Shown piece after piece: positions 25,135 to 30,555 of a stretch of 64,000 bases of DNA; position 1 is the first letter of the stretch; each line of letters begins with the position of its first letter. The stretch lies in NCBI GenBank assembly GCA_004022145.1, contig RCNU01000003.1; one strand, given 5' to 3'. This stretch comes from Paecilomyces variotii (lineage: Eukaryota). The position numbers were made by a program, and so were the translations under genes. The notes beneath the pieces are model-generated. The model did not search any database and was not told the origin of the DNA. It worked only from the letters and a program-made list of their open reading frames with translations.

Positions 25135-27392
25135 CTATTCACTCTCCTGTGTGGTCTTTTCCGATTTGGGCTTCGTGCTGGATATTCCAAAGATCTCGAT
25201 AAACAATTCCTTAAAGAACCGTCTAGTTTCCCAGATGGGCAAGATACCGCATAAGGCGACCGCTCCAAAGACCCAAATGAACGAGATGACCACCCATGCG
25301 ATGAAGAACCCCTTGGAGAAGACGTAGTGGCTCAAGAACATCGGAATGGGAATCAGGAAGTCCATGATGAATGAGAGAACGGTCGACGCCGTGACGGCAA
25401 GGATGAACGCCCGCCTGAGACGCTTGGGGTCATCGACCACAGCTTCGTCTTCGATCATCTCCTTTTCTTCATCTTGCACAGTTTGGAGATTGTGATTGTG
25501 GTTAGGGTCTTCACCACCGGTCTGGACTATGATGGGATTCTCGCCAGCAGCTGGAGCGTTGATGGCCCGGGTGATTTCCCAGTCGAAATCGTCGGGTTTG
25601 ATAACTGAGACGACCACTGATACAAGTAGGCCGGTGAGCACGGCAGCCATGTTTCCAGCAAGAGTTGGGTATGATTGCCCAGTCGTGGTGACGTTGAGCT
25701 CTCCGTAGTAGACTTTGCATTCAGCAAGCCATGCCGTGAGGCCCGCAATGAGACCACAGATCGCTCCAGAGATGGCTCCTGCTTTTGTCTGACCTTTCCA
25801 GGTGACAGTAAACGCAGCTGGGAAGACGGCTCCGCCGATAAGAAGACCCATAACAAGGAACAGCCAGCCTAGGTCGATACCGATGGCATTCCAGATGCAT
25901 GCGAAAACTGCCATGATAACACCAAAAATGCAGATCATGACGTGCGATACAAAAATCAGCTCCTTGGGAGTAGCCGACGGTTTGATATAGACTTTGTAAA
26001 TGTCGAAAGTAAGGATAGATGACACCGCAATGAGCTCAGACGCAGATGAGGACGTTACGGCCATAAAAAGCGTAATAAGCAACGCTACAGCACCGTGCTT
26101 TCCTAGCAACGCGGCTGCTGCAAATGGAGCAGAGAGACCAGCTGATACCTGCGCTGTGGTCATGTTGTTCGGGTATGTCGGATAACGAGGGTTATCTGTG
26201 AGAGCAACGGCAGCCAGACCGAGAGTTGTAGAGAAGCCAAAGGGAATGGCGAACCACGCAAAGCCTCCCATAATGTACGCTCGCACAGCGCTAGAGGGAC
26301 GACTTGCGATTGCTCTCTGCCAGTAGCCTTGGTCTAGGAAGACAGTTCCCATTCCAGAGCAGAGCTGGATAACACCGAATATGAGACCGTAGTTGGACTT
26401 GAGTGTCAAGTAAGAGCCGTCGGTATTACCAGCCACGGGCCGCTTTATGGAAGCTTCCTTCAAGAGCTCGTACATCTCCGTAGGTGATCCGATCAGATCA
26501 CTGGATGTGTACGTTGTGAACATGAAATAAAGTATAATGATCATCAAGATCACCGTATGAGAGTAGTCGCCTGCATAATCATATTAGTCTCCTTCCTCGT
26601 GCCAATATCATCGCAATCTGACGAGGATGTAGTTCACATACAAAGAAAAGTAGCTCGAAGACCGCCAAGAACAACATAGACGCAGACACCCAGTGGGATC
26701 AAAAAGACGGCTGCATATACGTTCATTCCGGTTAAGGCTGTAACGACGGCACTGCCACCAAGCAGAAGCTGACTAGCCACCAGAATGTTGGTCATCATGG
26801 CAAAGAAGATGAAGACAAGGTGAGTGACTCTGCCATATCGATGGTAGACTATCTCCAAGTACGTATGGCAGTAAGGAGCATTCTGTTTCACCTTGCACGC
26901 AAGTACTGAAAACATGAAAATCTGCACTGTTGCTCCTGCGGCATCTGTACCATGATGTGAGTACTCTTCCGCAGACACAATGAATCAATATAGGATACAA
27001 CTAACACTATCTCAAGTCAGAATAATCTCCCGAAAAAGGGCTGATATTTAGTGAACATACCCAGAATGGTCCCGAAATTCCATATTCGTAAGCTACAGTA
27101 CTGCTTTGAAGTAAGGTAGCAGCCCATGTCCATGCCGAAACAACACCGCTAGCGATCAAGCCGGGCTTCACACTTCTACTGGCCGTATTGAATTCCTCAC
27201 TTGTCTTTGTTGAGTACTGCGTATATTTGTTCTACTTGAAGTCAGCATCAGCTTTTCACATGCTGGGGATTGTACACGGACCTGCATCCAAGAAACACCA
27301 GCCATGACGAGAGCGAAGAAGAAACCAATACCGACAACTACCCCGTATCCTGCCCCCTCGGGCAGGACAGGCACGACGGCATCAGAAGCCAT
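25135..27392 (-). CDS. Urea/polyamine active transporter, sodium:solute symporter family (Dur3/UreA-like); includes a predicted 1-nt exon at 27006
   Basis: [99 protein letters not shown]. Introns at about 27232-27282, 27007-27060, 26945-27005 and 26571-26641. Confidence 0.92.
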
Positions 27393-27599
27393 CTTGGATG
27401 GTCGAAGTATTTTTTCCTAGATATGCAATATACAATGATACCTACTTGGCAACAGGGCGAGCGCGCTAGGGTATTCATGCCGGACTATAAGGAACTTATA
27501 GACCACGACAAGAGATAGATGCATGCGACGAGAGCCATCACTCTGGGGGGCCACGATCGCATGGCCAGATGCATCGAAGATCCGAACATGACGTCGAGA

Positions 27600-29050: not shown

Positions 29051-30555
29051 ATGTTTAGACGCGCCGTAACAGTGAGCTTTCGAGCGAGGCTCATCACTCG
29101 TCGTGCATACTCGACTGCACCCAACGCGCTTCTTGCGGAGAAGCTCAAGATCAATGGTGATAGGCTCTGGTACGGGTCATGTCGATGAACTGGCTAGTTG
29201 GAACGTGAACCTGGCTGACTTGAACAGGGATGATATCCACTACACAGCTCAATTCAGTGCACCTTCTCCTGGTGGTGTGACCCGTCTATGTGCCGACGAG
29301 AATGATAAGAAGGTCCGGGACTGGTTCAGAGATCAGGTGCTTGCACTGGGAGCAAAGTACACTGTCAGTATAGGCTTTCCGTCATGATGCCCTGGATATG
29401 AGCTGAAGAGGGCCTAGGTTAACGCGACTGGTACCCAAATCGCCACCTTCGAAGGCGAGGACAACAGCATTCCACCCATTGCTATGGGAAGTCATCTAGA
29501 CACCGTCGCCACTGGAGGTAGATTCGATGGCCCCCTCGGAGTGAGTCGTCCCCCAATCCTCGCATGCACGACTTTGTTTCTTACAAAAACAGGTCATATC
29601 CGGACTCGAAGTCATCCGAAGTTTGAAAGAACAAGGAATAAAGACTCGTGCACCACTCACCCTTTTCAACTGGACAAACGAGGAAGGAGCGCGCTTCTTC
29701 CCTCTTCTTGGATCCTCCATTGTGTATGCTGGAGAATCATCCGTCGACCAAGCACATGCCTCATACTCAAATGATGGATCTGGCTTGACGCTGGGCAGTG
29801 AGCTGGCCAAGATCGGATACGTCGGTGATGGTCCCAATACCTTTGAGGAATTCCCTATTTCAGCTCATTTCGAGGTACATGTGGAACAAGCCACCGATCT
29901 CGAGAAGGCCGGCAAACCCGTCGGTTGGGTTGAGGGATGGCAGGGAATGACCTGGTATCAGGTCATCTACCATGGTGACGATGGCCACGCGAATACCTAT
30001 CCCATGTATGGACGTAAGGATGCCCTGGTCGGTGCCTCTAAGCTCATCGTTGCGCTTGAGGATCTTGCATATGACTTGAATGGTTATACCACGACCACCA
30101 ACATCCAGAGCGGTCCATGGGGTGCCTGCAACATCCAATCAAAGACCAAAGTCGTCTTCTGCTTGATGCACAAAGAAGCACAGGGCTTAGAAGACATGGG
30201 AGAAAAGATCGTTAAGAAGATCAAGGGTATCGCCGCCTTGCATGGCCTTGAATATGAGCTTGAAAGACAAGTTCACCTACTCCCTGGAGACTTCTGGCCA
30301 GAAGCCATTGATTGCGTCAGGCGAGCCTGCGGCGACAAGGGAATCGGTTCCCGCACTGGTACTGGCCACGACTCAACCATGACCAGACTCAAGTGCCCAA
30401 CCGCCATGGTTTTCGTTAGGGGTAAAGATGGAATCAGTCACTGTGCCAGGGAGTGGAGTGATAAGGAGGACTGCGCTGAAGGAGCTCTCGTCTTGGGCAA
30501 AGCTGTCCTCAACTTCGACGAATATATGAAGACGAAGGCCTCAGGAAAGGCATAG
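29051..30555 (+). CDS. M20-family Zn amidohydrolase (beta-ureidopropionase / N-carbamoyl-amino-acid hydrolase-like) with a predicted mitochondrial presequence; 4 exons
   Basis: INGDRLW, GSHLDTVATGGRFDGPLG, NWTNEEGARF, HFEVHVEQ, GHDS and GISHC. Introns 29170-29227, 29364-29417 and 29541-29592. The N-terminus MFRRAVTVSFRARLITRRAYS is Arg-rich with no acidic residues. Confidence 0.9.

Follow-up and report, generated by a model that had tools for sequence, protein, structure and literature searches.

A one-nucleotide exon in a UreA/DUR3-like transporter gene of Paecilomyces variotii and its conservation in orthologous loci

Can a single base between two complete introns be an exon of its own? This question is raised by a transporter gene on the minus strand of a 64,000-nt stretch of Paecilomyces variotii DNA (contig RCNU01000003.1, assembly GCA_004022145.1; the whole stretch is called the window in the following). 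The gene product is a 673-aa sodium:solute symporter (SSS), i.e., a paralogue of the urea transporters UreA/DUR3. An earlier note on this DNA had claimed that the T at position 27006 is a one-nucleotide exon which is apparently needed to build the protein. Our analysis supports this with high confidence: the T is a real and apparently constitutively included exon, and the two complete short introns next to it (54 and 61 nt) are both removed.

On the minus strand, the region reads GGA CCA TTC TGG (to 27061), gtatgt...ttctgac ttgagatag, T, gttagt...tactcac atcatggtacag, and finally AT GCC GCA GGA GCA ACA GTG CAG (from 26944). That is, coding exon 2 (27061..27231, 57 codons, ...GISGPFW), which is strongly conserved in orthologues, closes on the complete codon TGG and is followed by intron A (27007..27060, 54 nt), the single T (27006..27006), intron B (26945..27005, 61 nt) and coding exon 4 (26642..26944, 303 nt). 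The latter begins with AT GCC (..Y AAGATVQ) and is short of one base. Intron A has the donor GTATGT, the acceptor ATAG and a branch-like CTGAC 10 nt from its 3' end; the respective elements of intron B are GTTAGT, ACAG and a CTCAC 13 nt from its 3' end. Both introns therefore carry, on inspection, their own GT donor, CTRAY-like branch motif and AG acceptor, and their lengths are comparable to those of the ordinary introns of the same gene (50 and 71 nt). This is exactly the arrangement that the earlier note had described.

The T provides the first base of the Tyr95 codon (T+AT). When it is included, the coding sequence is a single open frame of 2022 nt with 673 residues, which equals the deposited P. 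variotii protein P0002 minus an additional Val of the latter. When all 116 nt (27060-26945) are removed as one intron, translation of the resulting model is frameshifted, as the earlier note had stated, and stops at codon 113. In exon 4, 68/100 residues are invariant in an alignment of 17 sequences (A1).

To see what is present in RNA, we compared contigs from public runs that contain the gene, three of RNA or putative RNA and one of DNA, with the window positions 26400-27500. Run X1 provides one contig of 4026 nt (mean word depth 41) with 0 mismatches to the window in the fitting parts. This contig omits 27232-27281 (50 nt), 26571-26641 (71 nt) and 26945-27060 (116 nt), where exactly one letter is found between 27061 and 26944, namely A on the plus strand and T on the gene strand. 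Since the contig shows three GT..AG skips while none is found in the DNA run X8, it derives from spliced RNA. Among the Ts that these 116 nt contain on the minus strand, only the one at 27006 has AG before and GT after it; no other canonical origin is thus left for the retained letter. The mature mRNA reads TGG-T-AT, i.e., Trp94-Tyr95 (W-Y-A). The claim that the T is required for W-Y-A is thus borne out by the contig, which reads TGG-T-ATGCC, as well as by the orthologous protein models discussed below, where Tyr is found in 97/97 clean cases.

The same contig bears on three other ways to splice this region. First, a single intron of 112 nt could use the second GT of GTATGT (27056) as donor together with the ACAG acceptor. 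This intron is canonical (GT..AG) and in frame, and it yields W-V-Y-A as found in P0002 and in two Hyaloscypha models (P0041, P0093). The match of the X1 contig, however, stops at 27061 and not at 27057, and the contig holds one letter instead of four. The donor GTTCAC needed for this intron is also poor by the established fungal donor consensus. Second, a single intron of 97 nt with a GAG acceptor at 26964 is likewise in frame and would insert YSHHGTD before AAGATVQ. Here, the contig picks up at 26944 and not at 26963, and no orthologue among 129 models has such an insert in clean form; we consider this variant hardly credible. The earlier note had considered the GAG acceptor as well as the frameshifted form as alternatives and had missed the in-frame variant with the additional Val used by P0002.

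Third, the gene could be broken, that is, the 116 nt could be one intron with a frameshifted product, and the T of the contig an artefact of assembly or alignment. Donor A and acceptor B could indeed pair as one 116-nt intron, and five deposited P. variotii models omit about 19 residues at this place. Against this, the extra letter is carried by a de Bruijn contig with a mean word depth of 41 and 0 mismatches elsewhere, the reading frame is complete and shows 100% conservation between strains, and the AG-T-GT arrangement is conserved in 4 other distinct sequences (see below). A broken gene is thus extremely unlikely. None of the outcomes that the earlier note had named as refuting its reading was found, i.e., the X1 contig represents neither a GAG-acceptor product nor a solely frameshifted product, and there are no clean orthologues without Tyr.

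The genomic layout itself is supported by the other runs. The window is matched collinearly by the DNA run X8 (depth about 2129), which is nearly identical to it and may be the run from which the window itself derives. X2 and X3, two metatranscriptome runs from another study, provide only unspliced, DNA-like contigs across all three intron regions; they are uninformative on splicing and serve as strain variants. Their contigs show single-nucleotide polymorphisms (SNPs) in intron A, while no change is listed at 27004-27008, which argues that the layout is not an assembly error. The strain variants are concentrated at 27026-27041, where four SNPs and a 1-nt deletion (at 27038) are found.

Next, we studied how the junction is represented in deposited protein models. 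From 197 homologues, the 129 with the upstream anchor were used for the junction count. W-Y-AAG is found in 97/129 models, and among these clean models none (0/97) shows a residue other than Tyr. The other 32 models deviate at the junction. These are 8 models from P. variotii and 24 from elsewhere, namely Aspergillus (13), Penicillium, Rasamsonia and Hyaloscypha (2 each), as well as Talaromyces, Melanomma, Amorphotheca, Emmonsiellopsis and a record labelled Tricholoma (1 each).

All 8 retrieved P. variotii models are wrong at the Tyr95 codon and mutually inconsistent there. Five models of 655 aa pass from GPFW straight to VKQNAP and skip about 19 residues, a model of 652 aa passes from GPFW to NAPY, the model of strain No. 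5 reads YEY-DAAG, and the 674-aa model P0002 reads GPFW-V-YAAG. Two patterns are observed among the deviating models. Nine of them read W-V-Y, W-V-N, W-V-H or W-V-D. This would be expected from a gene finder that takes the second GT of GTNNGT as donor, such that the fourth base is joined to AT and the one-base deficit is repaired. Ten further models insert residues ending in D ahead of AAG, since the G of an acceptor forms a codon with AT. Both patterns would imply a donor right after TGG and an acceptor right before AT, i.e., the one-base deficit of the window.

These statistics also complete the picture for the 112-nt intron with the additional Val. A Val at this site occurs in 0/97 clean orthologues, and the same device yields V-N, V-H and V-D in other species, which is the mark of a gene-finder repair. 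Together with the RNA contig, this leaves the variant with a very low probability. In contrast, the one-base exon would explain the wrong Tyr codon in models from Aspergillus, Penicillium, Talaromyces, Rasamsonia, Hyaloscypha, Melanomma and others. A protein search with residues 38-196, aimed at transcript-derived orthologues from species with wrong models, yielded mainly models derived from genomes. The few proteins from assembled runs (e.g., P0143, P0155) read W-Y-AAG; their source may be either RNA or DNA without introns, and they are left out of the RNA evidence. The annotation error is concrete, i.e., 8 P. variotii models and 24 orthologue models are wrong at one codon.

To assess the DNA behind the models, metagenome contigs were scanned with an alignment anchored on the downstream exon, which provided 80 loci. 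Most of them have either no intron (TGGTAY contiguous; 30/80) or a single intron after TGG (TGG^TAY, the position of intron A; 28/80). A single intron one base earlier (TG^G) is found in 5/80 loci, and 6/80 have a 17-nt micro-exon between introns in Pro and Gly codons. In 4/80 cases (L067, L068, L069, L075), the contig ends short of the junction or the upstream exon was not found. The arrangement of the window, i.e., GT..AG/T/GT..AG/AY, is present in 7/80 loci, which represent four distinct sequences (L003=L004; L020; L025=L026=L027; L048). Intron lengths in these sequences are 50-51 nt and 51-54 nt, and each intron has a donor, a branch-like motif and an acceptor, with the exception of intron B of L048, which shows no match to the branch pattern used but a CTAAA near its 3' end.

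When the five distinct junctions (window included) are aligned, AG-T-GT is invariant, as the earlier note had proposed to check. The other invariant intron columns are the first donor GT together with GT at +5/+6, the G at +5 of the second donor, the CT.A branch motif, the final AG and one isolated T, while the remainder of both introns is unalignable. Such a pattern of conserved columns reads as the signature of selection on splicing signals only. The one-base layout is beyond chance, given that it is used by the RNA contig and that AG-T-GT is kept in four other distinct orthologous sequences whose introns are otherwise unalignable.

Other layouts are found at the same motif. In the TG^G loci (L044, L045, L046, L049, L080), the intron is shifted by one base relative to TGG^ and the protein sequence W-Y is unchanged; such one-base shifts of intron positions are of the type treated in the literature on stwintrons. 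The 17-nt micro-exon (ATTCTGGTACGCCGCTG-like; L060, L064, L065, L066, L070, L071) belongs to a different lineage and is located between introns in CC^A (Pro) and G^GC (Gly). Across the orthologues, at least 5 intron positions fall inside about 20 nt of the conserved motif.

How old is the double-intron layout? We computed a FastTree tree of 101 rows (loci of known DNA state and full-length named models) and 561 columns, for which Shimodaira-Hasegawa-like (SH-like) support is the only support available. The tree divides into two halves with 100% support. Every double-intron sequence (five) and every model with an improvised junction is located in one of them. Within the Eurotiales group, which includes the window and L048, 20/21 rows are double or improvised, the exception being A. 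californicus. The loci L003/L004 and L020 adjoin the two Hyaloscypha models, L025/L026 are within the same Leotiomycetes-like group, and Melanomma is found among Dothideomycetes. The other half, which contains lichen-forming and other lineages, shows no intron, a single TGG^ intron, a TG^G intron or the micro-exon. Here, the TG^G locus L080 is nested among intronless loci.

Contrasting the 30 double-or-improvised rows with the 71 others, a minimum of 6 changes is needed on the tree. Since the root was not inferred, the tree shows clustering but not direction. The layout appears to be old, that is, orthologues of both Eurotiales-like and Leotiomycetes-like type share it, and one Dothideomycete model implies it as well. 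The simplest reading would be that the TGG^ intron is the more widely shared one, that the second intron predates the divergence of the Eurotiales-like and Leotiomycetes-like sequences, and that both were later lost in some lineages. Another origin is possible, namely the one proposed for a Fusarium gene in PMC12940212, where a lost exon base is rescued by a cryptic AG-N-GT within an intron.

Close homologues are also recorded under basidiomycete names, i.e., P0029, P0115 and about 15 records of Mycena, Auricularia and Exidia, with 84-91% N-terminal identity. On the tree, the Tricholoma matsutake record (P0029) lies among the Eurotiales rows, and its junction is improvised (W-D-AAG). These records may reflect contamination or transfer.

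With regard to mechanism, short fungal introns are recognised by intron definition, and U1 at the donor covers roughly three bases of the exon and six of the intron. Introns A and B are complete introns of the U2 type that abut the T, and neither lacks a donor, branch site or acceptor of its own. The AG acceptor of intron A should fall within the U1 footprint of the donor of intron B; therefore, both introns are probably removed one after the other and not simultaneously. The likely order is A first, because it is transcribed first and emerges first from the polymerase. Once A is out, TGG-T/GTTAGT would provide an ordinary donor context for B. If B was removed first, ATAG/T-ATGCC would be an ordinary acceptor context, such that either order is workable. 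Joining donor A to acceptor B would lose the T and lead to a stop at codon 113, with one more intron downstream of it, and the predicted product would probably be degraded.

The latter product is the basis of a further proposal, made in the earlier note as an on/off switch, that is compatible with the one-base exon as an added layer. Besides being real, the exon could serve as a regulated switch: in certain nitrogen conditions, donor A would be spliced to acceptor B, which would leave out the T and expose the frameshifted mRNA to degradation (unproductive splicing). The position of the resulting stop, upstream of a further intron, fits this proposal, as does the fact that the structure is kept in several lineages though clean intron loss is evidently possible (30/80 loci are intronless). 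However, the single spliced contig shows no T-skipped isoform, where rare forms are invisible to contigs, and the retention is accounted for as well if precise loss of both introns is a rare event. We consider such a switch unlikely. The same low probability is assigned to its most far-reaching version, in which the one-base exon arose before Eurotiomycetes, Leotiomycetes and Dothideomycetes diverged and is kept as an off-switch coupled to nonsense-mediated decay that tunes an amidase-adjacent UreA-paralogue transporter to the nitrogen supply.

Stepwise removal at nearly coinciding splice sites is also known from Drosophila ratchet points. These are sites of recursive splicing at zero-length exons (AG/GT) that leave no base and serve the removal of long introns. 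As in our case, a 5' splice site follows almost directly after a 3' splice site. In contrast to ratchet points, one coding base is kept here between two minimal introns. A recursive splice site was therefore rejected as an explanation, since one base is kept in the RNA.

Some points weigh against a constitutive and ancient one-base exon. The RNA support comes from one contig of one run, which is listed as 'RNA? (a guess)' and whose RNA nature is deduced from the three GT..AG skips. Contigs lose rare variants, such that minor isoforms (T skipped, additional Val) are possible and constitutive inclusion is unproven. RNA evidence is furthermore limited to P. variotii, and the double-intron state of the deposited orthologues from other species is deduced from wrong protein models. 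The order of splicing is pure inference. Finally, related rows of the tree share their labels and its support is of the SH-like type only, and the low number of changes is no proof of a single origin.

Even so, genomic layout, RNA, frame requirement and orthologue conservation agree on a one-base exon at 27006. An exon cannot physically be smaller than one base, and in the literature searched, such exons are documented in a few places, i.e., in Arabidopsis APC11, in Fusarium CYP621A and in 13 Coprinopsis genes. The closest case is CYP621A (Nelson & Syed 2026, PMC12940212), which its authors count as the second known case and as the first from a fungus. Both are nuclear genes of filamentous ascomycetes in which two short introns abut one base within a conserved motif. 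In both, phase-incompatible boundaries spoil gene models, and support comes from an orthologue alignment and public RNA data. The genes differ in their family (cytochrome P450 vs. SSS transporter) and in the retained base. For CYP621A, this is a G (AGGGT; PMC12940212), which is consensus at both splice sites, while the T found here (AGTGT) is non-consensus at donor position -1. The retained T, instead of the splice-consensus G, bears on the idea of a favoured G put forward in PMC12940212. Furthermore, the CYP621A exon is reported in one genus, whereas the exon studied here occurs in sequences of Eurotiales-like as well as Leotiomycetes-like type, with a Dothideomycete model that implies it, too.

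APC11 of Arabidopsis thaliana (Guo & Liu 2015, PMC4674806) also contains a misannotated one-base exon that is constitutive, which apparently holds for our exon as well. It differs in its plant origin, in its base, which is an A (A333), and in its proof by green fluorescent protein (GFP) fusion constructs, while the exon at 27006 is known from sequence and an RNA contig. For the basidiomycete Coprinopsis cinerea, a long-read annotation lists 13 one-nucleotide exons in 13 genes (PMC12230235). This is a genome-wide count, in contrast to the one ascomycete gene with conservation data studied here. Given this count, one-base exons are a known and rare feature of fungal genes. The exon at 27006 is a new and unusually widely conserved case of this already reported rare exon type. 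Its RNA support and its conservation across ascomycete classes suggest a long-lived structure and not the oddity of a lineage, and the set of orthologues provides a natural variant series on how two spliceosomes treat abutting sites.

The earlier note had also related the locus to the splicing of fungal stwintrons, which is not supported by our results. Both systems share two successive splicing reactions in one short fungal stretch as well as intron positions one base apart in orthologues (PMC5587772). In a stwintron, however, the donor, branch site or acceptor of the external intron is split by the internal one and forms only when the latter has been excised, and no base is left behind, while here both introns are intact and abutting and one base is kept. 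A stwintron was thus rejected because no splice signal of either intron is interrupted in the primary sequence. The variant via a split donor (last G of TGG plus T) was rejected as well, since it would give a frameshift. Terms for micro-exons and adjacent introns are absent from PMC5587772. Our literature search, which had subscription journals and supplements outside its scope, found no description of a one-base exon in this transporter family and no paper that treats stwintrons together with urea.

We then investigated which protein is affected. P0002, i.e., the protein of this gene plus one Val, matches the full domains of PF00474 (71.8 bits, cut-off 22.8) and TIGR00813 (215 bits, cut-off 184). 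Since both matches are above the respective cut-offs, the protein is a member of the sodium:solute symporter family. Homologues carry the database name 'urea active transporter', and one P. variotii record gives Aspergillus nidulans AN7373 as homologue; the orthology to AN7373 rests on the name of this one record. AN7373 is among the UreA paralogues without significant urea transport (Sanguinetti et al. 2014, PMC4077062). The role as a 'nitrogen-uptake gene', as assumed in the earlier note, is thus uncertain. Besides PMC4077062, the search for literature on AN7373 found only an unrelated retracted paper.

Both the P. variotii protein and A. nidulans UreA belong to the SSS family, and at a constant offset of 11, 8/15 functionally named UreA residues (PMC4077062) are identical, namely W82, G99, Y106, A110, T133, R141, G168 and D286. 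Other offsets in the range of 5 to 17 give at most 3 matches among these 15. Tyr95, whose first base is the one-base exon, is therefore the counterpart of UreA Y106. Considering the residues conserved in urea transporters, Y106 and A110 match at offset 11, while N275, A374, Y388, Y437 and S446 differ, where insertions and deletions make a fixed offset unreliable later in the protein.

Y106 is linked to substrate selectivity and a possible gate, and in PMC4077062 it was picked partly because urea transporters conserve it, whereas paralogues such as AN7373 appeared not to. The mis-modelled residue is thus the counterpart of a functionally important one. Models from relatives of A. nidulans (P0051, P0122) read W-V-D-AAGS at this place, and the AN7373 model may have the same junction error. 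If so, the premise for choosing Y106 in PMC4077062 would need a second look.

The remaining parts of the gene are ordinary. Coding exon 1 (27282..27392, minus strand) starts with the ATG at 27392-27390 and comprises 37 codons with the last residues SWMQ. It is joined to exon 2 in the X1 contig (27282 to 27231), from which the first ordinary intron (27232..27281, 50 nt, GTCCGT...GTAG) is absent; the splice signals of this intron are present in the sequence. Exon 4 is supported by the sequence, the X1 contig and the translated model. It is followed by another ordinary intron (26571..26641, 71 nt, GTATGT...GCAG), which is also absent from the X1 contig and whose cut is ambiguous by 1 and was set to give GT..AG. 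The last coding exon (25135..26570) ends with the stop codon TAG (25137-25135) and is 100% identical to deposited P. variotii proteins.

A divergent neighbour is located on the plus strand (29545-30555, with upstream exons from about 29050). It is a Peptidase_M20 protein of the hydantoinase/carbamoylase/allantoate-amidohydrolase type, whose scores stay under the NCBIfam cut-offs, since the scan covered a single exon. The same amidase neighbour adjoins the transporter in L048 and L028. This neighbourhood hints that the substrate of the transporter may be a ureido or N-carbamoyl compound. The X1 contig reaches about 1.8 kb upstream of 27500, i.e., past the start codon of the transporter and toward the amidase gene, which reflects either a long 5' untranslated region or overlapping transcripts that were merged by the assembler.

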